In this document: positions 24,348 to 45,394 of the stretch, in pieces
Position numbering within the stretch: position 1 is the first letter of the stretch
How the letters are laid out: the number at the start of each line of letters is the position of its first letter
Source of the DNA: an uncultured delta proteobacterium
Lineage (GTDB): Bacteria; Desulfobacterota; Zymogenia; Zymogenales; Zymogenaceae
DNA: 64,000 nucleotides
Reading direction: 5' to 3'
NCBI GenBank assembly: GCA_963735595.1
Contig: CAVTLK010000001.1
Location: 640,001 to 704,000, forward strand
Notes under the pieces: model-generated
What the model was told of the DNA's origin: nothing
Seen by the model: only the letters and a program-made list of their open reading frames with translations
Databases searched by the model: none
Program-made: the position numbers and the translations under genes

Positions 24348-24350
24348 TGC

Positions 24351-25562: not shown

Positions 25563-25581
25563 TTCTCAGCCCGCCTTATCG

Positions 25582-26038: not shown

Positions 26039-26390
26039 CTACCTTATCCACGCAGCCGACGATCCCCCATCTGTAGAGCCGTCCCGCAGTTTCGAAGAGG
26101 ATGTACCGCGTCATGAGGATGGGTATCTTCAGTTCCTCGGCAAGTTTGACGGTCTCCGGAGGCGGTACCTTACCCCGGACGATGATGATGGCGGCGATAT
26201 CGAGGATCTCGGACGTGCGGATCACCTGCGGATTCGTCAGGCCGGTTAACAAGCATGGTGCCCGGTCGGGCGAACGCGAGCACATCGCTCATCAGGTCAG
26301 CGCCGAAGGCGGTATCACCTCCTTTTGCATCTGATCCTGTCCGACGACTACTTCGGCATCGAGTATCTGTCGTACCTCGCTAAGTTTCAC
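26016..26390 (-). CDS. DRTGG-domain protein (frameshifted)
   Basis: ADLMSDVLAF (shifted frame), TGLTNPQVIRTSE..D..IIVRGK. Confidence 0.8.
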
Positions 26391-26506
26391 GTAACCGGGT
26401 ACCTCATAACTATTTGGTTAGCAGAGCCCGCCGTTGGCGCCGATCGAATGTGCACGCGACATCCGATACTACAAGCGTCTCCTTATCCGCTGTCCGTCAG
26501 TTCGGT

Positions 26507-27935
26507 CTATCTCGTCGCTATTTCTTTTTTTCCGTTCATCACGTAGGCGTGCATGGCCTGCGCGGCTTTCCTTCCGGCGCCCATCGCCAGGATGACGGTG
26601 GCGGCGCCGGTAACGATATCGCCGCCGGCATAGACGCCCTCCCGCGAGGTCAGGCCGGTCTCTTCGTCGGCGACGATGTTGCCCTTCCTCCCGGTATCGA
26701 GCCCCGGGGTCGTTGCGGGCACGAGCGGATTCGGGCTGTTACCGATGGCCACCACGACCGTATCCACCGGGTATCCTGAATTCGGACCCCTTGATCGGAA
26801 CGGGTCGCCGTCTGCCGGAATCGTCGGGCTCACCCAGTTCCTGTTTCTGGCACTCGATCTCCCTGACCCAGTTGTTTTCGTCACCGATGAACGCTATCGG
26901 GTTGGTAAGAATGTGGAACTGAATCCCTTCATCCTTCGGCGTGGTGGACTTCTTCTTTTCTGGCCGGCATTTCTTCGAGCGAGCGCCGATATATAATATA
27001 CGCGTTGTCCGCCCCAAGCCTCAGCGCCGTCCGCGCGCTGTCCATGGCGACGTTGCCGCCGCCGATGACCGCCACGTTCTTGCCCAGCACGATGGGTGTA
27101 TCGTATTTAGGGAAGAGATACGCCTTCATGAGGTTGGAGCGGGTGAGATACTCGTTTGCCGAGTAGACCCCGTTGAGGTTTTCGCCGGGAACGCCCAGAA
27201 AGAGCGGGAAGCCCCGCCCCGGTGCCCAGGAATACGGCATCGTACTCGGACAAGAATCGTATCTACCGTCCGGATTTTGCCAATGACATAGTTGGTGACG
27301 AACTTCACCCCCATCTTCTTGAGATAGTCCGACCTCGGCCTCGACGATCGCCTTCGGCAGACGGAACTCGGGGATACCGTAGACGAGCACTCCTCCCGGT
27401 CTTGTGGAGGGCCTCAAAGACGGTGACGTCGTGGCCCAGGAGCCTGAGGGTGCCGGCCACCGTCAGCCCCGCGGGGCCCGATCCCACCACGGCGATCTTC
27501 TTGCCGGTGGAAACGGCGATCTTCGGCACCTCGACCTTTCCGGCGTTTCGCTCGTAGTCGGCGGCAAATCTCTCCAGACGCCCGATGGCCACCGGATCGC
27601 CCTTTTTGGCCAGAACGCACTTCACCTCGCACTGCTCCTCCTGGGGACAGACCCTCCCGCAGACGGCCGGCAGCGCGTTGGTCTCCTTGATCTTTTTGGC
27701 CGCGCCGATGAAATCCCCGGTCTCGATCATCGAGATAAATCCGGGTATATCGATTTCGACCGGACAGCCGGCAACGCAGCTCGGCTTTCTTGCACTTCAG
27801 GCAGCGTTGCGCCTCGCGTATCGCGGTCTCTTCACTATACCCAAACGGGACCTCATTGAAGTTTTTGCCGCGAACCTTGGGATCCTGTTCCGGCATTTTT
27901 TGCCGGGGAATTTGCATACGCTCTTTGGCTTCCAT
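26507..27935 (-). CDS. nfnB: NfnB / GltD-like large subunit of NADH-dependent reduced ferredoxin:NADP oxidoreductase (several frameshifts)
   Basis: NFNEV..G...EAQRCL.C, CGRVCPQEEQCE, GSGPAGL, YGIPEFRLPK, GGGNVAMD, GGDIVTGAATVILAMGAG. Confidence 0.85.
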
Positions 27936-27944
27936 GGTTATCCT

Positions 27945-28782
27945 CTATTTCTTGAGCGCCTGATTGAGAAAGCAATCCAGGGATTCGTGTTCCTGTTTCA
28001 TGTAGGTCTTCTGACGCATCATCAGCTCTTTGAAATCCACCTGATGCCCGTCAAATTCCGGCCCTTCCACACAGGCGAACTTGGACTTACCGTCGACCGA
28101 AACGCGGCACCCTCCGCACATGCCGGTGGCGTCAACCATGATGGAGTTCAGCGATACGACGGTATGGATTTTGTAGGGCCGCGTCACCTCGCTGACGGCC
28201 CGCATCATTACGACCGGGCCGATGGCCACCACGATATCGATCTTTTCCCCGGATTTAATAATCTCCTCGAGTGCCTGGGTAACGAACCCCTTCTGCCCGT
28301 AGGTCCCGTCATCGGTCATGACGATAAGCCGATCGGAGACCTTCTTCATCTCCTCTTCGAGGATAAGGAGGTCCTTGGTTCGGGAGCCGATGATGGTGAT
28401 GACCTTGTTACCCGCCTTCTTGAGCGCCTCGGTAATCGGATACATGGGCGCTACCCCCACGCCCCCGCCAACACAGACTACGGTCCCGAACTTTTCTATG
28501 TGGGTGGGCCTGCCGAGGGGACCGGCGAGGTCAAGGATGTTGTCACCCTGGTTCATCGTCCCGAGGAGTTTCGTGGATTTGCCGACTTCCTGAAAGATAA
28601 TGGTAACGGTGCCCGCCTTTGGGTCGGCGTCCGCGATGGTCAGGGGAATTCGCTCCCCCTGCTTCGTTGATACGAAGCACGATAAACTGTCCGGCCTTGC
28701 GCGCCTCGGCGATCTCACGGGCTTCGAGAACCATCTTGACAACGTCGGCCGACAGCCGTTCTTTTTTCACAATCTTTGCCAC
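27945..28782 (-). CDS. nfnA: NfnA small subunit (ferredoxin-NADP reductase-like; one frameshift)
   Basis: GQFIVLR..GERIPLTI, GGGVGVAP, MVDATGMCGGCRV, CVEGPEFD. Confidence 0.88.
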
Positions 28783-29030
28783 TTCAGGCTCGCTCCTTTA
28801 TCACATGGTATATAGTGCGTCGTGTCGATCGTTTTTTCGCAAAATTAAGGACGCCGTCCCGGAGAACCGCTTCGATAAATTCCTGATCACACATAGATAT
28901 CCGGCGTCCTGATTCATACCGCTATCGGCTGGACTTCCGGGGCCGGCCTGTTTGGCCGGCCCCGTATCCTTACCAATCTGTTACGTACATAATCAGATTC
29001 TTACTGAAAAAACTTCGCGCCGCTACGCCG

Positions 29031-30278
29031 TTACGCCTTCTTGGGCGCGGGAGCCTTATAAGGAGCGCGAGCAGGAATCCGACGACGAGAAACGCCGCCG
29101 CTATGTACAGGGCCACACCCTTGAACTGGGCAAAGACCCACGGGCCGATGATTCCGGCGGTTGCCCACGCGGTCAGCATGAATCCGTAGACCCTGCCGAT
29201 GTAGGTCGGTCCGAACGAGTCTGCCGCAAACGCGGGCATCGTCGCGAATCCGCCGCCGTAGCAGGCCAGCAGGTAGCAGGCGATGACGGTAAACAGCACC
29301 GCAGCCACCGACCTTCGGAAGCAGGATGTAGAGGACGGCCTGCGTGGCGAACATGATCATGAACACGGCCTTGCGCCCGATCGTGTCCGATATCCACGCC
29401 CAGAAGAGCCTGCCGAGGCCGTTGAAGATCGACGCGATGGAAAGGATCGTTCCGCCGGCGACCGCCAGCGCGGCCGCAAGCTTGACGGGATCGGTCTTCT
29501 GTCATCGGTCTTTTTCAGCACTTCCTGCGCCATCGGGCGACAGCTGTGAGATAAGGCCCAGGCCCGCCGATACGTTCAGGAAGAGCATGCCCCAGAGCAT
29601 CCACCATTGCGGGCTTTTTCTGAGCCTCAGCCGCGGTAAATGAACCGGCGGCCGACGTTGCCGTCTTGGACGGGGTGAATCCCTTCGGCAGCCATCCCTG
29701 GGGCGGGTTCTTATAGAACGAAGCCGCACCGACACAGAGGACCAGGAAGATCGCGCCAAGGATGTACCACGTATTGGCGACACCCATTTTGAGGATCATC
29801 ACCGGGGCAAGCTTGCCGATAAAAAAGGCACCCCCGCCATAGCCCATAACGGCAAGGCCGGTCACCAGGCCGCGCTTATCCGGAAACCATCGAATAAGCG
29901 TGGCTATCGGCGTTACATACGCGGCGCCACCACCCATACCGGCGAATAAGCCAAAGCCGATATAGAGGAGGACTATGCTTCCGACGGAATCGGCTAGACC
30001 TGCCATCATCGTGCCGATACCGAACAGGATAGCACCGATGGTCGCCACGAAACGGGGACCTTTTTTGTCAAGAATACTGCCGCCGAACGCTGCCGAAAGG
30101 CCGGTAAACGCCATCGGATCATAAAGGTAACCTGCACCCCGACCTCTTCCCAGCCGTGTGCTTCCATGAGCGGTTTCTTGAAGACCGACCATGCGTAGAC
30201 GGAGCCGAGGCAGAGCTGCATCACGATCGCCGCAACGGCTATCCACCAGCGCTTCATTTCTAAATTTTCTTTACTCAT
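29031..30278 (-). CDS. OFA-family (oxalate/formate antiporter-like) MFS transporter (frameshifted)
   Basis: LGSVYAWSVF, RWFPDKRGLVTGLAVMGYG, FNGLGRLFW, YGGGFATMPA. Confidence 0.85.
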
Positions 30279-30807: not shown

Positions 30808-33117
30808 TCATTCCGGGGATATACCGGCCTTCACCCTGCCGCCTGCCGTAACCGCCTGCCCCAGGGCAATCCCGCCGTCGTTGGTTGGCACGCGGCGGTG
30901 AGTCAGTACCTCAAGCCGCGCCTTTTCGAGCGAATCGATCACGCCGGCCAGGAGCAGCCTGTTCTGAAAGCATCCGCCGCTCAGCGCCACCCGGCCGATC
31001 CCCGTTGTCTCGGCGATTTCTTTTACCGTCTGAACGATCCCGGCAATCAGCGTCGCGTGAAACGCCGCCGCCAGGTCCTGACGGGAGATACCGGCATCCA
31101 TTCCCTCGACGATTGCGCGAATCGTACCGGACAGGTCCAGGACGACCGTATCGTCCTTCAGTATGACTTCGAATGGGAGGATATCCGCGGCCCCTGCCGC
31201 AGCACACGCCTCAAGCTCCATCGCGGCCTGCCCTTCGTAGCTCACGCTTCTCTTCAATCCAAGGATTGCCGCTACTCCGTCAAATACCCGGCCCATGCTT
31301 GTGGTTACGGGGCTGTTGATATCCCGGTCTACCATTCGCATGAACGCCCCTTTCGCGGCGCATTCCGGCACCAATCCAAGCCGCTCGGCAATACCCTGCC
31401 ACCGGCTTCCATACGCGGTCTTTACGAGGCTTGCTCCCGTCCGCCACGGCTCACGGATAGCCGCCTCTCCTCCCGGAAGGGTAAAGGGGGCCAGGTGTCC
31501 CGCCCGTTTGAACCCAACCCGGTCCGCGATGAGCCATTCTCCGCCCCAGATTGTCCCGTCCGTGCCGTAGCCGGTCCCATCCAGCGCCACCCCGATTACC
31601 GTGTCCGATACCCCGTTTTCCGCCATGCAGGATACGATATGGGCGTGGTGGTGCTGGACCATGTGAACGATCGCCCCCTTCATACGCCGAGCCGCATCGG
31701 TCGTGAAATAGCCCGGGTGAAGATCGCAGGCGACGACCTTCGGCCCGCATTCGGTTATTCGCTGCATGAGCGCGACGGTCTCGTAGAAAAAGCCGCGCGC
31801 GCCGGGCGTATCCATGTCGCCGATATAGGGGCTCATGAAGGCCAGGTTCCCTTTCAGGATGCACACGGTTGACTTCAGGTGCCCCCCGACGGCCAGAACC
31901 TCGGGATACGATTCGGCAAGGACGATCGGCCCGGGGACGTACCCCCGTGACCGGCGCAGTATCGCCGGCCGCTCCCCCACCACCATCGCGATCGAATCGT
32001 CGCACCGAACGACGATCTCCCGGTCGTGGACAAGGAAGAAGTCGGCTATATCCGAGAGACTCGCCAGCGCGTCCTCGTTCCCGATGGCAATCGGCTCTCC
32101 GGAGCGGTTCCCGCTCGTCATGACCAGGGGCGGCATGTCGGAATCAAAAAGGAGGTGCTGCAACGGGGTGTAGGGCAGCATAACGCCGAAAGTTCCCATC
32201 CCCGGGGCAACGGACTGCGCGACGATAGTCTTTTCGGTGCGTGGCATAAGAACAATCGGCCGCCTGGCCGACGTCAAGAGCGCTTGTTCTTCGGGCGTAA
32301 TCTCGACAATCCGGCGGGCCTCCCGGAGATCCCTGACCATGAGCGCGAACGGCTTTTCTTCTCGAAGCTTGCGCCGCCTGAGCCGCAGGACCGCTTCGTC
32401 ATCGGTCGCGTCGACGGCCAGGTGAAATCCCCCGACACCCCGGATCGCCATGATCGAGCCGGAACGCAACAAGCGCGCCGCCTCGCCCACTGGATCGCCC
32501 GTGTCAACGGGCACGCCGTCGCCCGTCAGCAGCAGCACCTTCGGCCCGCAACGGGCGCAGGCGTTCGGCTGGGCGTGGAACCGCCGGCTTGCGGGATCCT
32601 CGTATTCGCTCCTGCAGTCCGGACAGAGATCAAATGCAGCCATCGAGGTCTTTTCCCGGTCATAGGGGATATCTTGAATGATGGTCAGACGGGGGCCGCA
32701 GTCGGTACAGTTGATGAATGGATAATGGTAGCGGCGATCGCCGGGGTCAAAGAGCTCCTCGACGCACCGGTCGCACGTCGCGATGTCGGGGGGGATGTGC
32801 AGGGCCGATTGCCCGGTCCTGCGGCTCGCTATGATGCGAAACTCGTCGGCCCCGACCGTCGGGATCGTTTCTTTTACGAGAGCCGGTGATCTCGGCCAGC
32901 GGCGGGAGTTCCGTTTCGGACGGCGGAAAAGAAGGATGATACCGAAGGGGGTTGTCCTTCCAGCTCCACGACAACGCCGTCCGACGTGTTCTTTACGAAC
33001 CCCGCCAGTCCGAAGCGTACGGCGTATCCGATAGATAAAGGGACGAAAGCCCACTCCCTGCACCGTGCCGGAGAACAGGGACCTCACGCGAATACGATCG
33101 TCCGAATTGGTTAACAA
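30808..33117 (-). CDS. hypF: Carbamoyltransferase HypF (local frame disruption in acylphosphatase domain; start approximate)
   Basis: GTVQGVGFRPF, CTDCGPR, RRFHAQP, QHHHAH, NDGGIALGQ. Confidence 0.92.
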   Translation of the reverse strand: MLTNSDDRIRVRSLFSGTVQGVGFRPFIYRIRRTLRTGGVRKEHVGRRCRGAGRTTPFGIILLFRRPKRNSRRWPRSPALVKETIPTVGADEFRIIASRRTGQSALHIPPDIATCDRCVEELFDPGDRRYHYPFINCTDCGPRLTIIQDIPYDREKTSMAAFDLCPDCRSEYEDPASRRFHAQPNACARCGPKVLLLTGDGVPVDTGDPVGEAARLLRSGSIMAIRGVGGFHLAVDATDDEAVLRLRRRKLREEKPFALMVRDLREARRIVEITPEEQALLTSARRPIVLMPRTEKTIVAQSVAPGMGTFGVMLPYTPLQHLLFDSDMPPLVMTSGNRSGEPIAIGNEDALASLSDIADFFLVHDREIVVRCDDSIAMVVGERPAILRRSRGYVPGPIVLAESYPEVLAVGGHLKSTVCILKGNLAFMSPYIGDMDTPGARGFFYETVALMQRITECGPKVVACDLHPGYFTTDAARRMKGAIVHMVQHHHAHIVSCMAENGVSDTVIGVALDGTGYGTDGTIWGGEWLIADRVGFKRAGHLAPFTLPGGEAAIREPWRTGASLVKTAYGSRWQGIAERLGLVPECAAKGAFMRMVDRDINSPVTTSMGRVFDGVAAILGLKRSVSYEGQAAMELEACAAAGAADILPFEVILKDDTVVLDLSGTIRAIVEGMDAGISRQDLAAAFHATLIAGIVQTVKEIAETTGIGRVALSGGCFQNRLLLAGVIDSLEKARLEVLTHRRVPTNDGGIALGQAVTAGGRVKAGISPE

Positions 33118-33124
33118 GCATCCA

Positions 33125-34226
33125 TCATTGGTACTTGTAATAGGCCGCGCAGGTTCCCTCCGCCGAGACCATGCAGGGGCCGAGGGGGTTTCGAGGGAAG
33201 CACGCCGAGCCGAAACCGCGGACATTCGGGTGGCGAGATGATCCCCTTGAGCACGTCTCCGCAGCGGCAGCCCGGCGTATCGTGAGACTCAACGGCCGGG
33301 ATGTCAAATCGCATCGACGCGTCAAATCCCCGATACTCCTTACGAAAGCCAAGGCCGCTTTTCGGTATCATCCCGAGGCCCCGCCAGATGCGAGTCGGCC
33401 AGCTCGAAGACCTCGTATGAGGATCCTGCGGGCCGCCGCTATTGCCCTCTTCCTTGACGCGCGCGCCGATACTGAATCTCGGTCTTTACGTCTCCCGGAG
33501 ATGATCTGTTCCAGGATCATCAGATCCCTTCGAGGATGTCCACCGGCTCAAAACCGGTGATCACTCCCGCCCGGCCGCTTTCGGGCGATGATGCGAATAG
33601 GCGGCCGTCCCGAGGATCGTGCTCACGTGCCCGGGAAGCATGAAACCGTCCACGGAGATCAGGGGATCGGAAAGGAGTGCATCGATTGCCGGGGGGATAA
33701 CTTTATGAACGGAAAACACCGCGAGATTGGAAATGGAGCATGACACTGGCGGTCTTGACGACCGACGCCGCCGCCGGCGACGTCGTCTCGAATCCGATCC
33801 CCATGAAGACGATCTGCCGGTCCGGGATTGTTTTTGCGCCAGCGTCCAGACACTCCACCGCGGAATCGACGACCCTGACGTCCGCACCGTCGGCCCGCTC
33901 CTTTTCCAGCGACCGCCGTTCCGGTGCCGGGCACCCGGAGCATGTCGCCGAAGGAGGCAAATATGACGCCGGGCTGACGGGCCAGGAACAGCGCCGCGTC
34001 GACGTCCTGCACGGCAGGTCACGCAGACCGGACAGCCGGGTCCCGAAATAAGCCGGATGTTTTCGGGGAGCAGTCCCCGTATGCCGAAACGGCCGATGGC
34101 GTTGGTGTGGCTTCCGCAGACCTCCATAATGGTGATCGACCGGGTTAGCCGTCCCGCCCGTTTTCTGACTGCGGCCAGAAGCCCGTTAAAAAGCTTCGGG
34201 TCCCGATACTCGTCAATAAACTTCAT
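33125..34226 (-). CDS. hypD: Hydrogenase maturation protein HypD (several frameshifts)
   Basis: MEVCGSHT, GPGCPVCVT, GFETT, PGHVSTI, GPCMVSAEGTCAAYY. Confidence 0.9.
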
Positions 34227-34440
34227 GTTCGGTAAGCTCCCGAAGCAGCGCAAGCTTCTCCCTGGCGAGCTCCTCATCGACCTTATGAATCGCGAAGCCC
34301 GCGTGACAGATGACGTAATCCCCGATCGTGACCTCTTCATCGATCAGGTCCAGAAAGGCCTCGCGCCGAGTCCCTTCGATATCGATAATCGCCCGATTAT
34401 CGTCGATGGAGATGATTTTCCCGGGAAATGCAATGCACAT
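34213..34440 (-). CDS. hypC: Hydrogenase chaperone HypC
   Basis: MCIAFPG...GDYVICHAGFAI. Confidence 0.95.
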   Translation of the reverse strand: MCIAFPGKIISIDDNRAIIDIEGTRREAFLDLIDEEVTIGDYVICHAGFAIHKVDEELAREKLALLRELTEHEVY

Positions 34441-34442
34441 TG

Positions 34443-34800
34443 CTACTCCTCTTGTTCCACTTCCATTTCGATGAGCTTCAGGTCTTCCGTGCCCCCTACC
34501 AGAAGCACCGAAGGATCACCGCATGAGGGGCACGATGAGTATCCCCTGATAGTCGATGTCATATTCCTTCCGACAGGAAGACACGAAATGACGACCGGAG
34601 TGATCTCGAAGGAAAGAACGGCCCCTTCGGCCCGGGTTCCCCGGGCCATCGCCTCAAACGCCGTCTCCAGGGCGTCCGGCTGGATGCACGACATCCTGCC
34701 GAACGAAAGCGTGATCCTGTCCGACTTTTGCCGCGTTGTTTTTTTCGGCGTGTTCAAGGGCGATCTCAAGGACCGACTGCGCCAGGCTCAGTTCGTGCAT
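34443..34800 (-). CDS. hypA: Nickel metallochaperone HypA (frameshifted)
   Basis: MHELSLA start, CPSCG, GGTEDLKL. Confidence 0.88.
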
Positions 34801-35297
34801 TCCGGCCTCCTGACGGGTTTTACCGAGAGGGCCGCCAACTCCTCCAGCAGCAACCGCTCAATATCCGAAAATCGCTCGACCAACAGATCCGAAATCCTTA
34901 CTTCCATTGTATCATATTTCTCCGGCACGACGGTGATAAAAGTAACCGGCGGGCATTGATCCAAAAGATCGGCCATGGCAAGGACGTCCAGGAACTCCAC
35001 CTCGTGGGCCGACGTGGGTGCGTGGCAGATAGAGCGACATCTCTTCTTTCGTGAATCGGTATAGTGAGCCCGGCGTATCGTCGATCCTGATCGCATCGAT
35101 GACGATGAGATGCCCGGCGCCGGTGACGATATCCAGGAGACCCAGGCCCGCCGTCCCCCCGTCCACCAGCGAGACGGTATCCGGCAGTATATACCGATCC
35201 GAAAACCAGGCGATAAATCGGACCCCGAATCCGTCGTCCCCGACGAGGAGGTTGCCGAGTCCCAGTATGGTGATAGTTTTGTTTTGTTCATCGGCAT
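34788..35297 (-). CDS. Hydrogenase maturation endopeptidase (HyaD/HybD family; frameshifted)
   Basis: ILGLGNLLVGDDGFG, DGGT, IDAI, SAHEV. Confidence 0.88.
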   Translation of the reverse strand: MPMNKTKLSPYWDSATSSSGTTDSGSDLSPGFRIGIYCRIPSRWWTGGRRAWVSWISSPAPGISSSSMRSGSTIRRAHYTDSRKKRCRSICHAPTSAHEVEFLDVLAMADLLDQCPPVTFITVVPEKYDTMEVRISDLLVERFSDIERLLLEELAALSVKPVRRPECTN

Positions 35298-35416: not shown

Positions 35417-36108
35417 TCAGTGCTCTTTGGCCTTAAAGACCATGCCGTTTATCATCGAGGAGACGGTGCCTTCCTTGAAGACGATGTCGTACCAGAAGGC
35501 CATATAAATGTGCACGATGATAAACAGGACAAAGAGCCAGGTCAGGATATGGTGGACGTAGCGCACCATCGCCAGCCCCCCCATGCAGACGCTCGACGGG
35601 GGTCAGTATCCAGGCGTAAGGCCCAGCAGCCCGTGATCGTATCCCGCCCCGGTGAGGATGAGTCCCGTAATGACGATGAGAAAGATCATCACGAAGAGCC
35701 CCATGTAGGACAGCGCCTGCAGCGGCCCGTACAGGTAGACGTGCTCCGGGCGCTCGTTGGACACGAGTAGGTAGAACTTGATCTGTTTAATGAAGTTCTT
35801 CCAATCGGTGATCGCGAGGAAGTTCTTCCAGTTGGCGTGAAACCTCTCGAAAGAACCCCATGTACATTCTCCAGACGAACAGTATCGTGAGGATCACGCC
35901 GAACAGGAGGTGATAGTACCGCATCTCCCCCATGAGGAACTTATGCACCGTCTCTCCGGACGACACCGAGAAACGGATCGGCGATATACCAGCCGGTTAC
36001 GATAAGGAAGAAGATGGAGATCGCCATGGCCCAGTGGTGCACGCGGATTGGCACCGTCCATTCCCTGACGGGTGTCCTCTTTTCCATGGCCGTATCTTTA
36101 TTTTCCAT
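35417..36108 (-). CDS. hyaC: [NiFe]-hydrogenase cytochrome b subunit (frameshifted; absent from ORF track)
   Basis: Manual translation: IRVHHW..ISIF.LIVTG.YI, MRYYH, YGPLQ, VRYVHH..TW...IVHIYM. Confidence 0.85.
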
Positions 36109-36119: not shown

Positions 36120-37790
36120 TTACAATACTTTGAACTTCTTGATCTCGTTAGTCCTCGGGTCAATGATGTGGACGGCGCAGGCCATGCACGGATCAAACGA
36201 GTGGATCGTCCTGATGATCTCCAGCGGCTGATCAACGTTGGCAAGGCGAGTCCCGATCAGCGATTCTTCGTACGGCCCCCTGAGGCCGGCCGCATCCCTC
36301 GGCGAGCAGTTCCACGTCGAGGGAACGACCGCCTGGTAGTTTTCGATGACCTTGTTCTTGATCTTGATCCAGTGGCCCAGCGACCCGCGCGGCGCCTCTT
36401 TCATGCCGCGCCCTTGCGCCTCCTCGGGAACATCGCAGCGGGTCCACGTCCTGGTATCGCCGGACTTGATGTTGGTCACCAGCTCGTTGACCCAGGCCTC
36501 AGTATTGTCGGCGATGAGCTTGGTCTCGAGTGCCCGCGCGGCAGTCCTTCCAAGGGTTGAAAAGAGGACCGTGACCGGCAGTCCCGTGGCCTTGAGGGTG
36601 GAGTCGACCAGGTCCTTGATCTTCTGATCGCCCGTGGCATATCCGATGATGAAGCGTGCCAGCGGCCCCACCTCATAGGGGAGACCGTCGTACCGGGGCG
36701 CCTTGCACCAGGTATACTTCTCGTCGGCCTTGACGTGTCCGGACTCGTCGTAGTCGGTATAATTCGGTTCGGTTGACCCATCGTACGGGTGCAGCGGCTG
36801 GCCGTCCGTGTACCAGGAGTGCGTAACGTCCTCGGTGATCTTGGTCTCGTCAAGCTTCTCGACGTTTGCAAGGTCCCGGTTCTTGATGACGCCGGGCTGG
36901 AAGAACGTCGTGGTGTAGTCGTCGTCGAGGTTGATCCCCCCGTAGGAGAGGTAGTTCTTGACTCCGCCGCCGATCCCGGCCAAACCCTCGTCCTTGTAGT
37001 AGGTGGCCGCCAGCAGGACGTCCGGGATATACGCGGTCTCGACGAAGTTCCTCATCTCCTTGAGCCGGAAGAGATACTCGCCGATTCGGTAGGCGTCCAG
37101 CGTATCCATTACCGAGGTAACGCCGCCGGCAACCAGCGTCTGCGGGTGGGGGTTCTTGCCGCCGAAGATCGCCATCATCTGGGCGCCGACCTTTGAGACG
37201 GCCAGGGCGTCCAGGTAATGGGATACGATAATAAGGTTTGCCTCCGCGGGCAGCTTGTAGGAGGGGCTTCCCCAGTAGCCGTTGGCAAAGGGCCCTAACC
37301 GGCCCGATTCAACGAATTTTTTCAGCCGTTCCTGGACGGACTTATAGTGGGATGCGGAGGAATTGTACGGGTTGTCGCAATAGGCGCGCGCCATATCCTC
37401 GGCCCTCCGGGGGTCCGCCCCCAGGGCCGAAACGACGTCCACCCAGTCAAGACCGTGCAGGTGATAGAAATGCATGATGTGGTCGGTTATGTAGAGAGAT
37501 GCATTGATGAGGTTTCTCACGATACGGGCGTTCGTGGGCGGCTTGACCCCGAATGCGTCTTCCACTGCCAATATCGAGGCCTCATAATGGGAATAGGTGC
37601 AGACCCCGCAGAACCGCTGGGTCATGAGCCCCGCGTCCCGGGGGTCTCTCCCCTTGAGGATAGTCTCGATGCCCCGCCAGAGGGTGATGGTAGACCAGGC
37701 GTCCTTTACGGTATTACCCTCCAGCTCGACCTCTATGCGTAAATGTCCTTCAATCCGGGTAATCGGATCGATTATTATTTTCTGAGCCAT
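36120..37790 (-). CDS. hyaB: Group 1 [NiFe]-hydrogenase large subunit
   Basis: DPITRIEGH, L1 QRFCGVCTYSH, L2 SFDPCMACAVH plus cleavable C-terminal tail. Confidence 0.96.
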   Translation of the reverse strand: MAQKIIIDPITRIEGHLRIEVELEGNTVKDAWSTITLWRGIETILKGRDPRDAGLMTQRFCGVCTYSHYEASILAVEDAFGVKPPTNARIVRNLINASLYITDHIMHFYHLHGLDWVDVVSALGADPRRAEDMARAYCDNPYNSSASHYKSVQERLKKFVESGRLGPFANGYWGSPSYKLPAEANLIIVSHYLDALAVSKVGAQMMAIFGGKNPHPQTLVAGGVTSVMDTLDAYRIGEYLFRLKEMRNFVETAYIPDVLLAATYYKDEGLAGIGGGVKNYLSYGGINLDDDYTTTFFQPGVIKNRDLANVEKLDETKITEDVTHSWYTDGQPLHPYDGSTEPNYTDYDESGHVKADEKYTWCKAPRYDGLPYEVGPLARFIIGYATGDQKIKDLVDSTLKATGLPVTVLFSTLGRTAARALETKLIADNTEAWVNELVTNIKSGDTRTWTRCDVPEEAQGRGMKEAPRGSLGHWIKIKNKVIENYQAVVPSTWNCSPRDAAGLRGPYEESLIGTRLANVDQPLEIIRTIHSFDPCMACAVHIIDPRTNEIKKFKVL

Positions 37791-37815: not shown

Positions 37816-39027
37816 CTACTTTTTTTCGGCTTTCTTCTTCTTGTCGTCTTCCGGGCCGTGGCGCTTGATGGCCGAAGCCGCTGCATGGGCGGCAACGCCG
37901 GCCACCGTGAGGCCCGCCAGGGTCGCGAAGACCGTGTTGACAGTGGACTCAACCCCCTTTACGCCGATCGCCCCATCGGATATCGGTTTTTCGAGGGGGG
38001 CCATCGTATCCCAGAAGGCCGGCTCGTAGCATCCCATACAGCCGTGACCGGCCATGATCGGCCACGAGGTGCCGTCGTTATAGCGGACCTTGCCGCAGTT
38101 CGCATAGGTGTAGGGGCCCTTGCACCCCATCTTATAGAGGCACCAGCCCCGCTTTGCGCCGGCGTCGCCCCATTCCTCGACATACTCGCCGGCGTCGTAG
38201 TGGGAGCGCCGCTCGCAGTAGTCGTGAATACGCTTTCCGTAGGCAAACAGCGGCCTGCCGAGGGAATCGGTGGCCGGCAGCGCCCCGAACATCAGGAAAT
38301 GGAGAACGGTCCCGACGAAGTTTACCGGGTTGGGGGGGCATCCCGCGATGTTGATCGTCCTGATCCCGAGGGAGTCCCGAATGCCCTTGGCATCCGTCGG
38401 GTTGGGCTTGGCAGCCTGGATGTTACCGAAGGAAGAGCAGCTCCCGATGCAGATGACGGCGGCGGCCTTCGAGGCCGCTTCCTTGCCGATCTCTTTTCCG
38501 GTTTTCCCCTCGCTCCCGATCCTCAGGTACTTGCCGTCCAGACCCTCGGGGATGGCACCCTCGATGACCAGCACGTACTGCCCCTCGAAATCGGCCATGG
38601 CCTTCGTGAGGTTTTCCTCGGCCTGCTTGCCGGAAGCGGCCATCAGGGTCTCGTGGTACTCCAGGGAGATCGTGTCCAGGAGAATGTCATCGACGTTCGG
38701 ATAGGACGTGCGCAGGAATGCCTCGCTGCACCCGGTGCACTCGGCGAAGTTAAGCCAGATGACCGGCAGCCGGCTGAAGTTCTCCGCCGCGCGCGCCACC
38801 ATGGGGCGGAACATCGGCGGGAGCATCATGACGCCGGTTATGAACGACGTCCACTTGACGAACTCCCTGCGTGAGACCCCCCGCGCCTTGAGGCTTTCCT
38901 GAAGACTCTCTCTCGGTTCGGGCAATGTCTCTTCAATTTGATCCAGTTGGACCTGACAGTACTCCATTAATTCCCGGTACTGCTTTTCTACCGTCCGGCG
39001 GTGGCCGGAGCCGTTTGTGCCGCCCAT
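37816..39027 (-). CDS. hyaA: Group 1 [NiFe]-hydrogenase small subunit (Tat signal, C-terminal membrane anchor)
   Basis: AAAGGAGG SD before ATG 39027; SRREFVK, ECTGCSE, GCPP, CLYKMGCKGP, HGCMGC. Confidence 0.95.
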   Translation of the reverse strand: MGGTNGSGHRRTVEKQYRELMEYCQVQLDQIEETLPEPRESLQESLKARGVSRREFVKWTSFITGVMMLPPMFRPMVARAAENFSRLPVIWLNFAECTGCSEAFLRTSYPNVDDILLDTISLEYHETLMAASGKQAEENLTKAMADFEGQYVLVIEGAIPEGLDGKYLRIGSEGKTGKEIGKEAASKAAAVICIGSCSSFGNIQAAKPNPTDAKGIRDSLGIRTINIAGCPPNPVNFVGTVLHFLMFGALPATDSLGRPLFAYGKRIHDYCERRSHYDAGEYVEEWGDAGAKRGWCLYKMGCKGPYTYANCGKVRYNDGTSWPIMAGHGCMGCYEPAFWDTMAPLEKPISDGAIGVKGVESTVNTVFATLAGLTVAGVAAHAAASAIKRHGPEDDKKKKAEKK

Positions 39028-39258
39028 AATGCCTCCTTTCAATAGATCATCTGGTCTCTGTAGGAAACTACTCGGTATAATCAATTAGATCGGCGCGCAA
39101 TCCTTCCGCCCCGCTTTCTGTACGGATTATCGATGCTCATTGGACATCGATGCCGGCAGGGAGCCGATTGCCCGGCTTCGTATCGAGCGGGTCTCGATAA
39201 TCGTGATGCCGACAACAAAGCACTCCGACCTGATGAGATCCGCTGTCAGTTCGCCGCT

Positions 39259-39370
39259 AAGATAAAACCGGTGTTTTGGGAAGGATACGCGATGCGCAAG
39301 GGTAAGATTCCGGGAAGATGACATGGGCACGTCATCCCGATCCTGCGCCGTTCTCCTTTCCAAACACGGG
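39259..39370 (-). terminator. Putative riboswitch-controlled terminator (long imperfect hairpin overlapping aptamer 3' end)
   Basis: UCCUUCCCAAAACACCGG (39268-39285) is complementary to aptamer CCCGUGUUUGGAAAGGA; followed by UUUUAUCUU. Confidence 0.5.
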
Positions 39371-39493
39371 AGGCATGGGCGTTTCCGTCCATACCCTATC
39401 GTCCCTGTTCCATCGGCGGAGGGGAAAGGATTGCCTTTTCGTGGCCGTAAATCCCTTCCCGACCCGTACCATTAGGGCACAGGGATCGGAGAA
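39351..39493 (-). ncRNA. Moco/Wco-family riboswitch (P3-less type) upstream of the hydrogenase operon
   Basis: P1 UUCUCC/GGAGAA; P2 UCCCUGU/ACAGGGA with CCUAA...AUGG receptor-like motif; P4 GGGUAUGG..GAAA..CCAUGCCU; canonical 3' end CCCGUGUUUGGAAAGGAG. Confidence 0.88.
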
Positions 39494-39502
39494 AGCAGGT
39501 TA

Positions 39503-39531
39503 TTTATAGTGCAACCGCATAAAGATGTCAA
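39503..39531 (-). promoter_or_regulatory. sigma70-like promoter directly before the riboswitch
   Basis: TTGACA-17 nt-TATAAA. Confidence 0.65.
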
Positions 39532-39684
39532 GGTTTTTTGATGGGCGGGTAGATGAAAAGAAGCGATAGGGGATAGCCCCACAATAGCGCTGTTATCCCG
39601 CTACCCATAACATGACAGCGGGCGGAAGTGAGGAGAGCGGCTAGCCGGCATCGGCCGCGTGCTGTCCTGCCGGAACGTACTCTA

Positions 39685-40534
39685 TTATGTATCGATTGCC
39701 AGGACGCTCACCAGGTCGACCGTGTCCCGGATATATCCCTCCCGTTTCGCAACGATATCAAGGCGGATGGTCGTAAGGTCCTCAAGTCTCGGGAAGGGCG
39801 TCGGCCTTTCTTTCGAGTCGACCGATTTCAGGTAGTGCTTACAGGTATCGCAGACATATACCCGGTGGGCGGGGTCGTTTTCAACCGTGAAATATCGTGT
39901 CTTTTCCCGCCCGGCTTCACCACAAAACGGACAGGTCAACCGGCGGAAGTTCCACCGCGTCAAACATCGGCCGCAGGAGAGCGTGAGACGTGCCGTCCTC
40001 TCCCTCGATGAGCGAAAGGTGCGGGGCGGCGCCGCACACGGGGCAGTAGGAGGCCGCCCACTTGTCCAGCAATCCGGTTCGCTCAAAGCTCTCCTTAATC
40101 GGATTAAGGAGATACCGCAGCGTCTCGTTTGCCGCCAGAAGCGCTACCGGACGCGAGCCCCCGAATCCCTCCGGAAAGAGATATTCCTGGCTCAGCACCC
40201 CGCTCAGCAGCGCCCGGAAGGCCTGCCGATCGCCGTAAAACCCGACGATTTCCTCGGCGCCTTTCTGATCCTTTTCGAGCACGACGGTTACCAGCCGGGC
40301 AAACCGCTTCCCGAGCCTTTCGACATCGTCAGGAATCAGCCGCACGTCGGCCAGAGGGAATCCGTCGGACAACCGGCCTGAATCCGGAGGGGCGTCCGCT
40401 TGCCTCTGCGTCCCCGTCTCTTCTCCGCCGATTCGCACAAAACCCGTCAGGATTGCCAGAAGCGGCTCGATTTTCGGGTCATTACTCATCGCCCGTTTAA
40501 TGGCGGCGATTTCGGGGTCTTTCATGTATGCCAT
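39685..40534 (-). CDS. fdhE: Formate dehydrogenase accessory protein FdhE (frameshifted)
   Basis: YCPVCGAAP, CGRCLTRW...CPFCGE, VCDTCKHYLK, DLTTIRLD. Confidence 0.85.
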
Positions 40535-40599
40535 TCCCCATAATGATTGGGGCGGCCGTACGGCCGCCCCTTCAATGATAGATCGGGTTTTCGGCTCAC

Positions 40600-41238
40600 T
40601 TAAGCCTTTGACTTTCGGGTTTCCTTGACGATCTTTTCCCGGTAGTAGCCGGGCATATGGGTCTTGGCCCACGCCTCGGTCACCTTGCCGTCCGTCATGA
40701 CCGGCAGGCTGCCCGTCGTGCCGACGGTGCCGAGATAGATGTGCACCATCGAAAACCCGCCCATGACGGCAACACCGAGGGCATGAAAGACCACCGTCCA
40801 CCGCATGAGCGGAGCCCAGATGAGGCCCTTTCCGAACCAGAGCAGTAACCCCGTGGCAATCATTACGGCGCCGTAGAGTGCCACCGTAATAAAGAACAGC
40901 TTCTGGCCCGCGTTGTACTTATACGGCTCGGGTATTTTCGCCTTCCAGAGGTAACCGCCCGCCGCCTTCATCCACTCGATATCTGTCTTGTCGATGTAGC
41001 CCGCTTCTTTATACCAGTGACGCACGGCAAAGACAAGGGCAATCGTGAAGACAAGGCCGATAAACCGGTGGTAGTCCTTGACCGCCCGGTAACCGCCGAG
41101 CATTTCGGCAAGGGGGGCAAACGCGTTGACGGCGATTATCAGACCGGTAAAGACCAGGGCCAGACACGTCCCCGCCAGAACCCAGTGGATTACCCGCTCG
41201 TAGGGGGTCGATGCGATAACGACTTTTTGCCCAGCCAT
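40600..41238 (-). CDS. fdnI: Formate dehydrogenase gamma (cytochrome b) subunit
   Basis: ERVIHW, KYNAGQK, VHIYLG, GKVTEAWAKTH. Confidence 0.92.
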   Translation of the reverse strand: MAGQKVVIASTPYERVIHWVLAGTCLALVFTGLIIAVNAFAPLAEMLGGYRAVKDYHRFIGLVFTIALVFAVRHWYKEAGYIDKTDIEWMKAAGGYLWKAKIPEPYKYNAGQKLFFITVALYGAVMIATGLLLWFGKGLIWAPLMRWTVVFHALGVAVMGGFSMVHIYLGTVGTTGSLPVMTDGKVTEAWAKTHMPGYYREKIVKETRKSKA

Positions 41239-41239
41239 G

Positions 41240-42043
41240 CTACTTACCTCCCTCTTCCTTGGGATGCTTCGGTCCCTTGATCATATAGTGAAGGAGCGCC
41301 CCCCGATGACGCCTCCGATTGACAGGAGTCCGAGCGGTTTGGCGATGTTTCTCCAGAGTTTTACGGTTATCGGGACGTGCGGCGAGACCGGGAGCTTCGC
41401 GTAGAGCTTTTCCTGCTCGGTCAGCACGTACATGACGTGGGTCCCATCGACGTAGTCCCTACCGTACAGGGAGGCCGCCAGACCTTTTTCGACAAGTTGG
41501 GCCACCCGCTGCTCTCCCTTGTCGATCATCTGCTCTTTGAGGCCGAAGCTGAGGCACCCGGTGGGGCATGCCTTGACGCAGGCCGGAATCATTCCGTTGG
41601 TGATTCTATCCTCGCAAAGGGTGCACTTATACGTCACCTTCGTCTCTGAGTCGTAGCGCGGTATACCGAACGGACAGGCAATGACGCAGTACTTGCAGCC
41701 GATGCAGAGGTCCCGGTTGAGCCTGACGGCCCCTTTCTCCCCGTACGTGAGGGCGCCGGAAGGGCAGACCCGCACGCAGGAGGCGTCGGTGCAGTGAAAG
41801 CACCCGTCCTTGCGGAAAATCCAGTCGACACTGCCGTCCTCTTTTTCACGCTCCTGGAAGCGGATGAGCGTCCAGGTGTTGTGTTGAAGGTCGGGAGGGT
41901 TTTGGTGGCTTCCCCAATTTGTTGTCTGGGCGCCCGGCTGTGAATTCCAGTTCTTGCAGGCAACCTGACAACCGCGGCATCCCGTGCACTTTGGAGAGGT
42001 CGATGAGTTTGACCATCTCTTCCTTTATCTTTGTCGCTGCCAT
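41240..42043 (-). CDS. fdnH: Formate dehydrogenase beta (4Fe-4S) subunit (frameshifted)
   Basis: GCRGCQVACK (shifted), CIGCKYCVIACPF, KCTLCEDR...PACVKACPTG, C-terminal TM. Confidence 0.88.
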
Positions 42044-45000
42044 TATAGCCACCCTCCTTTCACCTTTTCAACATTAACCAGGAAGGCCTTGCTCTCGGGA
42101 ATTGAGGTGTTTGGGTCACCGATAGTCGACGTGAGCAGATTGGCCGAGTCGCCGAACGTGTAGACCTCCGGCTTGGGCACGGCAGGATCGCTGCTCTGCC
42201 CCTCCTCGGTGGTCCGCCACCCGAAGTGCCACGGGATACCGACCTGATGGAGCTCGACGTTGTCACCGAGTTTAAACGGTTTAAACCGCTTGGTCACGAT
42301 GGCAACGGCCACTATTTCGCCCCTGGCCGACGAGACCTTAACCCGGTCACCCCCTTCGATCCCCTTCATCTCCGCGAGCTCTTCGCTCATCTCTACAAAA
42401 TTTCCCGGCTGCATCTCTGCCAGCCAGGGCTGCCAGCGCGTCATAAGCCCGGTCTGCCAGTGTTCCGTAACGCGGTACGTAGTCGCCAGAATCGGGTACT
42501 TCGGATCGCAGGTGCCGGCGTAAACGTCGACGTCGCTGCCGACTTCCGGTCTATCGTAGCGGCGGATGACGGGACTGATGAGCTGTTTGGGATTGAGCAG
42601 GTTTGCCGGCACGGGACACTCGACAGGCTCATAGTGCACCGGGAACGGGCCGTCGGCAAGGCCGGGGCCGAATATCGATGCTACGCCCTCTTTCTGCATG
42701 ATGAAGGGGAGCCTCCCATCCGGGTTGGTGGACCCGTCGGCCTTTTTGAGCGGCGGATAATTCCCGTCGATGACATCCCCAACCCACTTGTCTCCGGCCC
42801 AGCGGACGACCGGCTTTGCCGGCGCCCACGGCTTGCCGGTGGGATCGACCGATGCGCGGTTGTAGATGATCCTCCGGTTGACGGGCCAGGACCATGCCCA
42901 TTTCGGGAAAAGACCGATGCCCGACGTATCCGTGTTGTTCCTTCGGGCGGAGTTGTTGCCGTCCGCGTTGTAGGACTGGGAATAGACCCAGCTACCGCTG
43001 GAGGTGGAACCGTCGTCCTGGAGCATTACGAACGAAGGCACGAGGTCCCCCTTCTTATACTGCTTGTCCTTGATGACTGTATCGTCGAGGAAGTATCCGT
43101 TTATCTCTTTGGCCACGTAGTGGCGTATCAAAGGCCTTCATCTTGCCCGAGTAGTCCTTAGGGCCGTATTCCCAGGCGAGCTTGGTGAAGGCTTCCTTCA
43201 AGACGGCGTTGTCCTTCTCCATGTGCTCCCTGACCTTGAAGAAAGAGCTCGGTATGATCTCGCCGTCGGCCATCGCCTCTCCCGGCGGATTGACCGCCTT
43301 ATAGCGCCATTGCATCCAGCGACCGGAGTTGGTGATGCTCCCCTCCTTTTCGAGGGACGCGGCGCACGGAAGCATGAAGACCTCTGTCTTGATATCGGCG
43401 GGTTCATTCCAGGACCCCGCCAGAAAGAGCCGGTCTCGTTGTCGAAGAGATTGACGTTCACGAGCCACTCGAGCTTCGCCAGGCCCTTTCTGACCTTATT
43501 CGCATGGGCACCGGAGCATGCCGGGTTCTGACCCCAGGCGAGCACACCCTTGAGTTTACCCTTGTAGGCGGCGTCCCAGATCTGCAGCCAGGAGTAGTTG
43601 ACGCCGTCGTCGGGCTTGGGGAGGTAGCCGTAGCCTCTTCGAGAGTGGCGTTCAAGCCGTAGAGCGCCCGCAGGAGACTCACCATATACTTGGGATAGTT
43701 GGATGCCCAGCTCGCGCTCAGGGGGTTGGATGGCTTGACTGCGTGATCCGGGCCGGTTGTAGGCGGCCAGCGTACGCCAGAGACGCGGTCGGCGCGGCGA
43801 GGTATCCGGGAAGAATATGGTAGAGGAGTGCCGTAGTCGGTGGAGCCCTGAACGTTGGACTCCCCCTCAGCGCGTTGACGCCGCCTCCGGCCACTCCCAT
43901 GTTGCCCAGAAGCATCTGGATGATGGACATCGCCCGGATGTTCTGGACGCCGACCGTGTGCTGCGTAAAGCCCATGGCGTACAGGATCGTCCCGGCCTTG
44001 TCGGACGCTCCCGCTCTTCGCGTACGCCTCGTAGACGGCCGATGAGCTTATCTTCGGGGGTGCCGGTAACCTGTGAGACCGTCTTCAGGCTCGTACCGGT
44101 CATACTCTTTCTTGAGCAGCTGTAAAACGCACTGCGGATCAGTAAGCGTCCGGTCTTTCATCGGGAACCCGTCCCCGCCGGCCACGAACGTCCAGGTCGC
44201 CTTATCGTATTTGCCGCCCGCCGGCGTCTCCGTCAGGCCGGAAAATACGCCGTCGTTGTCTGCCGCCAGCTTAAAGGCTGAATTGACGACAAACGACGCG
44301 TTCGTATATTCCCGGACGTATCTCAGAAGTAGAGCTTCTTTGTCGATGATATACCTGATCATACCGCCCAGAAAGGCGATATCCGATCCGGATCGGAGGG
44401 GGGCGTAGATGTGGGCCTTTGATGAAGTCTGGGTGAACCTCGGATCGACGCTGATAAGGACGGCACCGTTGTCGATAGCCCGCTGTACCCATTTGAAGGA
44501 AATCGGGTGATTTGCGGCAGCATTGCTGCCCATGACAAGAATGACGTCACTGTTCTTCAGATCGATCCAGTGATTGGTCATTGCGCCTCTACCGAACGAC
44601 TCTGCCAGAGCCGCTACCGTTGCGCTGTGTCAGATACGGGCCTGGTGTTCAATATACACCAGGCCTAACCCCCTCAGGAATTTCTGATAGACATAGCATT
44701 CTTCGTTGTCCATGGCCGCGCTGCCGACCGAGGCGACCGCGGTCGTTCGGTTGACGACCTGGCCCTTGTCGTTGGTGCGGGTGAAGCTCTCGTTGCGGGA
44801 CTTGACGATTCTCTTGGCGATCTTGTCGAGGGCCCAGTCCCACGATACCGCTTCCCATTTGTCCGAGCCGGGGGCGCGGTAGAGGGGAGTCGACAGGCGG
44901 GCGTCATTGACCGCTATCTGATAGAGCGAGCCGCCCTTCGGGCAGAGGGAACCCTCGTTGATCGGGTGATCTGGATCGCCCTCGGTGTTGATCACCGTGC

Positions 45001-45187
45001 CGTTGCGGGTATGGACGATGATTCCGCAGCCCACCGCGCAGTAGGGACAGATGGTGGTCGTCTCTGTGGCGTACAGGGTTTTCAGCGGGAGCGCCTCCGC
45101 CCGAACCGAAGCGATATTCAGGCCCAGACCTCCCACGAAGACCGTGGCGCCGGTTAGTCTAAGAAACGTACGTCTGGTAACTTCCAT
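42043..45187 (-). CDS. fdnG: Periplasmic selenocysteine formate dehydrogenase-N-type alpha subunit (UGA=Sec at 44630-44632; several frameshifts)
   Basis: Tat TRRTFL; CPYCAVGC; EHQARI-U-HSATVAAL..SFGRGAMTNHW; WPVNRRIIYNRAS; TTYRVTEHWQTG. Confidence 0.92.
44597..44613 (-). promoter_or_regulatory. SECIS-like hairpin of fdnG
   Basis: CGGCTCT-GGC-AGAGTCG 16 nt downstream of the UGA. Confidence 0.7.
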
Positions 45188-45258: not shown

Positions 45259-45315
45259 AAAAAAAAGGAAGAGATACCTCCCCCTTGTCCCCATGGGAAG
45301 GTCATCTCTTCCTTT
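45259..45315 (-). terminator. Intrinsic terminator in fdnG leader overlapping aptamer P1
   Basis: AAAGGAAGAGAUGACCUUCCC...GGGGAGGUAUCUCUUCC followed by U8. Confidence 0.85.
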
Positions 45316-45394
45316 GCAAACGGCGGGGTAAGCGATCTCTCCCTTACCCGTATCGGCTCACGGATCCCGTCGGGATCGGTGAACTCGGAAGATA
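45304..45394 (-). ncRNA. Variant Moco/Wco-family riboswitch (compact, P3-less) upstream of fdnG
   Basis: P1 UCUUCC/GGAAGA, GA, P2 GUUCAC..GAUCCC-GAC-GGGAUC..GUGAGC, CGAUA junction, P4 GGGUAAG..GAGA..CUUACCC, P5 GC-CGUUU-GC, AAAGG: same topology as the 39351 aptamer. Confidence 0.72.

Follow-up and report, generated by a model that had tools for sequence, protein, structure and literature searches.

A genuine and conserved riboswitch of the Wco type precedes a [NiFe]-hydrogenase operon in the 64,000-nucleotide stretch of DNA analysed here (the window). The arrangement is less new than the first-pass annotation of this DNA held, and the sign of control is probably the opposite of the one proposed there. 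Its main value lies in the paired layout with the formate dehydrogenase operon fdnGHI, which makes a tungsten-controlled choice between formate and hydrogen directly testable. The release of hydrogen versus formate by syntrophic and fermenting anaerobes, and its control, is a long-open question; for Syntrophomonas wolfei the evidence points to a membrane hydrogenase in one study and to a membrane formate dehydrogenase in another, a difference that has been ascribed to growth conditions (Crable 2016, PMC5101538). If the RNA before the hydrogenase genes represses them while its sister activates the dehydrogenase, tungsten supply would be a direct, testable control that picks hydrogen or formate as the electron carrier. 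Such a control would bear on trace-metal dosing in digesters and on the interpretation of metatranscriptomes, and would provide the first worked logic for a link between this RNA and hydrogenases that has so far only been listed in print.

All features of the riboswitch locus lie on the minus strand, a point absent from the first-pass annotation. The two operons and the RNA before fdnG are arranged as follows.

30808-35229, minus strand: hyaD protease, hypA, hypC, hypD and hypF (profile and Pfam matches, comparison with genome G001)
35420-36108, minus strand: hyaC, cytochrome b, frames split in the window assembly (tblastn with the G001 copy; PF01292)
36120-37790, minus strand: hyaB, large subunit with RxxC and DPCxxC motifs (PF00374, E 7.5e-217)
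37816-39027, minus strand: hyaA, [NiFe]-hydrogenase small subunit with twin-arginine leader (TIGR00391, 457 bits)
39566-39582, minus strand: terminator-like hairpin between fdhE and the hydrogenase promoter (terminator scan)
39685-45187, minus strand: fdnG-fdnH-fdnI-fdhE, selenocysteine formate dehydrogenase-N operon, frames split (NCBIfam)
45259-45391, minus strand: variant Moco/Wco RNA before fdnG, with short P2, no GAAA loop and a U8 terminator (sequence)

The hydrogenase operon reads hyaA, hyaB, hyaC, hyaD, hypA, hypC, hypD, hypF, with hyaC, hypA and hypC assigned by Pfam on the intact G001 copy. HyaABC and the protease have the marks of a membrane-bound group 1 [NiFe]-hydrogenase, namely a Tat small subunit, the RxxC/DPCxxC motifs and a cytochrome b; HyaB carries cysteine, not selenocysteine. 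Only hydrogenase and Hyp genes, and no Mo/W gene, occur within hyaABCD-hypACDF, and the earlier claim that the aptamer heads a hydrogenase operon is supported. RF01055 RNAs usually stand before genes for Mo/W uptake, cofactor synthesis or cofactor use, a tendency with published exceptions, from which this operon departs. Directly upstream on the same strand lies the fdnGHI-fdhE operon, whose fdnG contains one TGA (selenocysteine) in intact relatives. The frames of hyaC, hyaD, hypA, hypD and the fdn genes are split in the window and whole in G001; the splits are likely to be assembly indels.

The hydrogenase promoter and leader contain the following elements.

39503-39531, minus strand: sigma70-type promoter TTGACA-17-TATAAA (sequence motif, conserved in the genus; predicted activity)
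39351-39493, minus strand: P3-less Moco/Wco aptamer, P1 to P1 (the RF01055 match spans 39337-39503)
39422-39460, minus strand: long hairpin capping P2 (RF01055 alignment and folding; variable in length and sequence across the family)
39335-39348, minus strand: anti-aptamer 1, pairing with the 5' strand of P1/P2 (genus-specific; duplex -20.7 kcal/mol)
39296-39348, minus strand: spacer hairpin H and its extension (stepwise folding; competes with anti-aptamer 1)
39268-39285, minus strand: anti-aptamer 2, C/U-rich strand able to pair with P5 and the P1 3' strand (MFE; putative role)
39259-39267, minus strand: weak U-run after anti-aptamer 2, a pause or weak terminator (tail score -4.7)

A covariance-model search returned a significant RF01055 match on the minus strand (64.9 bits against a gathering score of 36, E 2.5e-13, model positions 1-135, the full model). 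The alignment contains P1 (UUCUCC/GGAGAA), P4 with its GAAA loop, the CCUAA/AUGG receptor and P5, with P3 gapped and P2 capped by a 50-nt insert relative to the model. All six P1 pairs are kept in five aligned copies, among which P2 is changed on both sides. The two motifs of the putative tertiary contact, the GAAA tetraloop on P4 and the receptor in P2, are both present. The promoter motif named in the annotation is present (TTGACA at 39531-39526, 17 nt, TATAAA at 39508-39503), P1 begins 10 nt past it at 39493, and TTGACA-17-TATA is kept in all four aligned genus genomes. A consensus promoter scan listed no promoters because it requires T at position 6 of the -10 box. From the GGAG of P1 to the hyaA start at 39027 the distance is 326 nt on the same strand. 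As to a separate hyaA promoter, which by the annotation would have refuted its reading, a sequence scan from the switch to the start of hyaA gave no sigma70-like site in four of four genus genomes. A sigma54-like site near +243 was rejected, being found in one of nine leaders. No RNA record was listed for 38000-41200, and three RNA runs of the same study gave only six short pieces of low identity, none of which fell on the leader; these results weigh on neither side.

Anti-aptamer 1 (39348-39335), another element new to this analysis, forms duplexes of -8.8 to -20.7 kcal/mol in the five genus-type copies and of -2.8 to -7.5 kcal/mol in the other six hyaA leaders, and is changed on both sides in G001. 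As the transcript grows, its pairing has an advantage of 4.4 kcal/mol at +20, breaks even at +42 and has become unfavourable once +58 is reached. In the competing hairpin H, the core pairs are kept in five of five copies at five of seven positions. Anti-aptamer 2 and the U-run at 39267-39259 stand as the first-pass annotation described them, and the ligand-free MFE of the leader (-99.8 kcal/mol, z -2.96) includes their pairing with P5/P1; the duplex taken by itself is no better than in 200 shuffled leaders (z -0.6, p 0.27), and a significance of its own was rejected. The weight of anti-aptamer 2 comes solely from its recurring position. Its best window falls at +61 to +77 in eight of ten hyaA leaders, and among canonical switch records 18 of 33 have the window at +55 to +85 against 26% expected if uniform, a count that is inflated by kinship and in which a pyrimidine-rich strand easily matches a purine-rich one. 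A 78-codon ORF at 39127-39363 was considered as a leader peptide and is unsupported, its start lying inside P5 without a ribosome site. The distal leader has an inverted repeat with 7-bp arms at 39134-39156; it is retained in part by G001 and G003 and could be an RNA hairpin or a protein site.

The window genome holds five RF01055 matches, before an NAD-type aldehyde dehydrogenase, hyaA, tupA, tupB-tupC-moeA and an aldehyde:ferredoxin oxidoreductase (AOR); the AOR gene was assigned by PF02730, and tupB, tupC and moeA were named from their translations. Because a tupA-type PBP is present, modA was not found in this 93% complete genome and five AOR-family genes occur, tungsten is the likelier metal for the switch, in keeping with the association drawn by the first-pass annotation. 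P3-lacking forms of RF01055 go with tungsten (the P3 rule; Regulski et al., 2008, PMC2408646), and by this rule and the gene set the ligand is likely to be the tungsten cofactor; the molybdenum cofactor or a precursor is a less likely candidate. Regulski et al. (2008) likewise did not show direct binding.

hyaA is present in all ten genomes of the family, and in eight of them (G000, G001, G002, G003, G004, G006, G007 and G009) it is immediately preceded by a same-strand RF01055 match at 313-486 nt from its start; these genomes are not independent, and the conservation counts share their kinship. In G008 a contig end coincides with the start of hyaA, and a switch whose leader resembles that of G007 is truncated by the end of another contig; no switch was found in G005. 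The switch is retained where fdn is divergent (G006), absent from 8 kb upstream (G007) or absent from 2 kb upstream (G009), and these three cases reject the idea that it is a leftover of the fdn operon; the same follows from its recurrence in eight of ten family genomes and in a second lineage. In G006 (L039/L158, G006:C39:15549-16116), hyaA and fdnG stand back to back and divergent, each with its own promoter and switch subtype.

Outside the family the arrangement is rare. Rfam found two matches among 40 scanned of 80 genome HyaA loci and three among 20 scanned of 80 metagenome loci, and a core profile over all 160, with flanks of at most 1.2-1.5 kb, gave a same-strand upstream switch in the same five; two of the five (L076, L181) are family-type. 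The second lineage comprises G158 and 20 relatives, of which eight have a HyaA match and three (G158, G162 and G165) a switch directly upstream; L189 duplicates the G162 leader and was not counted separately. G158 and G162 share the whole layout of the window, with variant switch, fdnGHI, canonical switch and hyaA. In a downstream-gene survey of the kind suggested in the first-pass annotation, a wide distribution was rejected: none of 30 non-family phylum genomes with RF01055 matches has a same-strand PF01058 gene just downstream. One divergent PF01058 case (G141) occurs in that set, and the nearest [FeFe] gene to a match is 12.7 kb off, behind unrelated genes. In a HyaA tree that was built without G002, L117 and G165, the family forms one supported clade (100/97) with the switch in nine of 11 rows, G008 counted, and two losses (G005, L182). 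The switch label needs five changes on this tree, at least three of them forced, and more than one origin of the hyaA switch is plausible. Among switch-less HyaA loci, L098 (803-1204), L119 (302-721), L190 (485-868) and L215 (505-954) are preceded by a small gene for a ModE-like DNA-binding protein (TIGR00637, E 5e-10 to 1e-15, below the cut-off), through which a protein might exert the same control. At L098 there is, in addition, a divergent gene with a Tat leader and a weak match to the variant switch. A nickel-type context, with a CbiM-like transporter or NikR upstream, was seen at L082, L102, L084 and L191 (L082 and L084 scanned).

The RNA before fdnG, likewise missing from the first-pass annotation, is a sub-threshold sixth copy of the RF01055 type in the genome. 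Its aptamer part spans 45391-45308 on the minus strand; Rfam at E values up to 1 does not list it, and orthologues at the same place in G001 and G003 exceed the RF01055 cut-off. The U8 terminator takes the P1 3' strand, and the RNA is predicted to be an ON switch for fdnGHI. Subtypes were counted on 45 switch records gathered by pattern from fetched loci. Eleven records, five before fdnG and six before AOR genes, all lack the GAAA loop and end GCAAAGGAA, while the remaining 34 all keep it and precede tupA (10), tupB (4), aldehyde dehydrogenase (9), hyaA (10) and a cytoplasmic hydrogenase (1). Aptamer subtype tracks gene class, and the loop-less subtype is sub-threshold and partly missed by Rfam.

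In the terms 'ON build' and 'OFF build', which are our own, all 11 loop-less variants have a predicted ON build, in which a hairpin that captures the P1 3' strand is followed by a run of U7-9 at +42 to +46 (tail scores -5.6 to -6.4). The same build was seen by eye before fdnG in G006, G007, G008, G158 and G162. For the AOR variants it fits the induction of switch-bearing AORs by tungstate that is described for P. carbinolicus (PMC3543383, PMC4275255). The hyaA aptamer is of the canonical subtype that also stands before tungstate transport genes and the metal-free aldehyde dehydrogenase. Canonical tupA copies have an OFF build, either with a terminator downstream of P1 (G004, G006, G008 and G009) or, in four of six genus copies, with a leader ORF that opens behind the P1 ribosome site and closes where tupA begins. 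Tandem switches occur at L055, L057 (G007, G008) and L060 (G005): a pair of ON-type variants in front of AOR, and a pair of canonical copies in front of the aldehyde dehydrogenase.

The preferred reading, which we hold to be somewhat probable, is that the cofactor represses the hydrogenase by early termination, and about two thirds of that likelihood goes to a route via Rho. Without the cofactor, the C/U-rich strand 39285-39268 would pair with P5/P1 and stay hidden, so that transcription goes on; with the cofactor bound, the aptamer would hold, the strand would be exposed and untranslated, and Rho would terminate the transcript. Anti-aptamer 2 is accordingly a candidate Rho entry region. In other genera the same outcome may be reached by P1 locking the ribosome site of a leader ORF, and within the window genus anti-aptamer 1 might offer a second route as an antiterminator: if it persisted without ligand, the long hairpin would be blocked and the result would again be repression by the cofactor. 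HyaABC and FdnGHI would be parallel quinone-linked outlets, the hydrogenase probably serving as a tungsten-free substitute for the formate dehydrogenase.

Several observations argue for repression. The aptamer subtype follows gene class, the hyaA leader is not built like the loop-less ON variants, and the terminator-like hairpin sets it apart from fdhE. In four of ten hyaA leaders the GGAG of P1 is followed after 7-8 nt by a start codon, which opens frames of 53, 110, 107 and 61 codons, and the two long frames have a chance of about 0.001 each at local composition. Outside the family, the hyaA leaders of L184 and G165 have terminators downstream of P1, an OFF build, in long leaders that may hold a second promoter. 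C exceeds G over +21 to +100 in all ten hyaA leaders (28:14 in the window), and forcing the aptamer fold raises unpaired C in nine of ten, from 4.0 to 7.8 in the window. Rho is encoded in the window genome, and the unmasking of Rho sites by riboswitches has been described for ribB and thiM (PMC12360218). Two P3-less switches of E. limosum that stand in front of non-pterin genes are reported to be up-regulated on tungsten limitation (PMC11725836), which supports repression by the cofactor. The physiological setting was counted on the same side: an acyl-CoA dehydrogenase, etfBA and a 722-residue CCG-domain oxidoreductase frame are adjacent in the window genome, the layout expected for electron flow from ETF to quinone in the Crable 2016 model (PMC5101538), and no DMSO-family terminal reductase was found there, PF00384 giving only two formate dehydrogenases and one truncated subunit. 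A hydrogenase serving Mo-dependent respiration was rejected on the latter result, and a preprint predicts the class to be fermentative and non-respiring (10.1101/2021.03.22.436540). G005, which has neither a switch nor an FdnG match, also counts for repression, as one event in an 88% complete genome where a single deletion could have removed both. The leader frames at L040 (G007, 110 codons) and L042 (G008, 107 codons) start behind P1 and stay in frame through A+T-rich DNA, with little residue conservation.

Other observations count against it. The window genus has no start codon 5-10 nt behind P1 and no leader ORF. Rho sites take up 60-90 nt, and the C-rich stretch exposed in the bound fold, about 40 nt, is short for one. 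G009 has the switch and no full FdnG match, in an assembly of 550 contigs. The direction assigned to the aldehyde dehydrogenase switches is itself presumptive, and P. carbinolicus is reported to express an extra acetylating aldehyde dehydrogenase in tungstate-rich medium (PMC4275255). Finally, the window leader without ligand has as its MFE a long hairpin with a U-rich run at its end, and all four genus genomes, although their sequences have changed, have U-rich windows grouped at +80 to +87, as an ON switch would predict.

That ON switch is what the first-pass annotation proposed: without cofactor, anti-aptamer 2 would invade P5/P1 and form an intrinsic terminator at the U-run, and the cofactor would block termination, so that the hydrogenase is made along with the formate dehydrogenase when tungsten enzymes are active. 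The hairpin is indeed the MFE from +80 onward, with a margin of 9.5 kcal/mol over the P1 state at +86; G000, G001 and G003 have a U-rich tail behind it (as do G002 and L181 by eye), and the anti-aptamer pairs are kept or improved across five copies. However, the closing helix is just 2-4 bp long (2 bp in the window) and has a mismatch three pairs away from the base, the terminator scan does not call the hairpin in the window, and its tail (-4.7) is weaker than those of all 11 ON-type terminators (-5.6 to -6.4). A U-tailed hairpin was scored in three of ten orthologous hyaA leaders, and no such terminator was scored in the other seven. The same pairing also occurs elsewhere without a U-run: in the aldehyde dehydrogenase leaders of G006, G007 and G008 the anti-aptamer is a 14-15 bp match at +65 to +74, and since no U-run follows, the pairing appears to work without intrinsic termination. 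An ON switch at hyaA would further need a change of sign relative to orthologues with OFF builds, and an aptamer subtype different from that of every examined tungsten-enzyme switch. We therefore regard activation as unlikely, though it deserves real weight, and as less likely than repression.

Two further possibilities are far less probable. The RNA could have little effect, having been inherited from a neighbouring Mo/W locus or bypassed by a downstream promoter that mainly drives hyaA. The position of fdnGHI just upstream in the window genus, the lack of a switch before most HyaA relatives and the two losses inside the family clade would suit this view, but the switch is kept in G006, G007 and G009, where fdn is divergent or absent from the upstream stretch, P2 has changed on both sides and the leader scans for sigma70- and sigma54-like sites speak against a downstream promoter; we consider it improbable. 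About as improbable is control of translation only, with freed anti-aptamer 2 pairing with the hyaA ribosome site, again with repression as the result. That site (39040-39031, minus strand) reads GAAAGGAG and resembles the P1 3' strand, and translational control has been proposed for three of five E. limosum switches (PMC11725836). Yet it lies 230-400 nt away, G005 has the same site without a switch, and the bound fold in the window pairs the strand with a different purine run near +235. Full-leader folding leaves its accessibility nearly unchanged (0.29 to 0.21 unpaired), a small change on which long-range masking was rejected and which was counted against repression as well.

Taking repression at hyaA together with the predicted ON switch at fdnG, a broader and more tentative proposal, to which we give somewhat less than an even chance, is that this riboswitch class has diverged into two subtypes, opposite in sign, which together act as a tungsten selector. 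The loop-less subtype would turn FdnGHI and AOR on and the canonical one would turn HyaABC, the cytoplasmic hydrogenase and the NAD-linked aldehyde dehydrogenase off; tungsten would set formate versus hydrogen, and the wiring would have arisen more than once and would explain the S. wolfei disagreement. B12 riboswitches, which repress B12-independent isoenzymes such as metE and nrdAB, are a precedent for a cofactor sensor that shuts a cofactor-free alternative; there the isoenzymes carry out one reaction, whereas the hyaA/fdn alternative changes the product from formate to hydrogen.

The first-pass annotation knew of no described case of a hydrogenase behind this riboswitch, and here it has to be corrected. 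Supplementary Fig. S2 of Regulski et al. (2008; PMC2408646) has entries for S. wolfei in which the tandem RNAs Swo-1-8/Swo-1-10 precede an [FeFe] hydrogenase that has a cytochrome b, and according to one sentence on tandems in Sherlock et al. (2022; PMC9481103), Wco switches are found in front of hydrogenase genes with no relation to cofactor synthesis. Both are listings, and neither passage tests or explains the link. The word 'hydrogenase' (as a word start) is absent from the main text of the former and 'hydrogenase' from that of the E. limosum study (PMC11725836), and the available text of PMC13390414, PMC8892533, PMC9971707, PMC5317091 and PMC13271884 has nothing on it. No account of the direction or of the paired layout, with formate dehydrogenase ON and hydrogenase OFF, was found in the literature searched; supplements and subscription papers may hold one.

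The hyaA switch resembles the P3-lacking RF01055 type (PMC2408646) in P1, P2, P4, P5, the GAAA loop, the receptor, the missing P3, the 5' leader position and the presence of multiple copies in a genome, in front of tup, moe, AOR and FDH genes. It differs in that the genes of its operon neither make, import nor use pterin, and in its 50-nt P2 cap, two competing anti-aptamers and lack of a strong terminator. The S. wolfei system likewise has this RNA class before a membrane-linked hydrogenase and an FdnGHI operon with its own copy (Swo-1-11), but the enzyme is [FeFe] rather than [NiFe], the RNAs are tandem rather than single, the phylum is another and their rows in the supplement carry no comment. 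From its subunit layout, we infer that the switch-bearing hydrogenase of S. wolfei is the Hyd2ABC of Crable 2016. For the Wco tandems, the sentence of Sherlock et al. (2022) gives no direction, organism or physiology. The E. limosum Tuco riboswitches (PMC11725836) are also P3-less, stand before non-pterin genes (iron transport, focA) and are up on tungsten limitation, but their targets, as described, are transporters. In E. coli ribB and thiM (PMC12360218), the bound fold unmasks a C-rich site or blocks translation and leads to Rho termination as proposed here; these belong to another aptamer class, and Rho coupling at hyaA is putative.

Other hydrogenase and formate dehydrogenase genes were seen near such switches or in the window. 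At L069 (5962-6450, minus strand, G002), a canonical switch with a P1 ribosome site and a 24-codon leader ORF lies directly before a cytoplasmic [NiFe]-hydrogenase operon that encodes a 594-aa Fe-S subunit with a PF00384 match and the small and large subunits. In G000 and G003, the cytoplasmic [NiFe]-hydrogenase operon follows the switch-bearing aldehyde dehydrogenase. An [FeFe] hydrogenase stands behind the switch-bearing aldehyde dehydrogenase at L061 (2621-4372, G001) and L060 (4764-6512, G005), with Pfam run on the G001 copy only; a 290-nt gap in G001 may hold a promoter for this hydrogenase. The window itself contains a second selenocysteine formate dehydrogenase (16695-28742, minus strand) with NuoE/NuoF-like partners, small regulatory-type genes and an Nfn-like pair, the partners being named from translations and only the NfnA-like frame profile-scanned; a pattern scan of the genome gave no switch before it. 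An oxalate/formate-antiporter-like MFS gene (28970-30270, minus strand) follows hypF after a gap with promoter-like motifs of its own.
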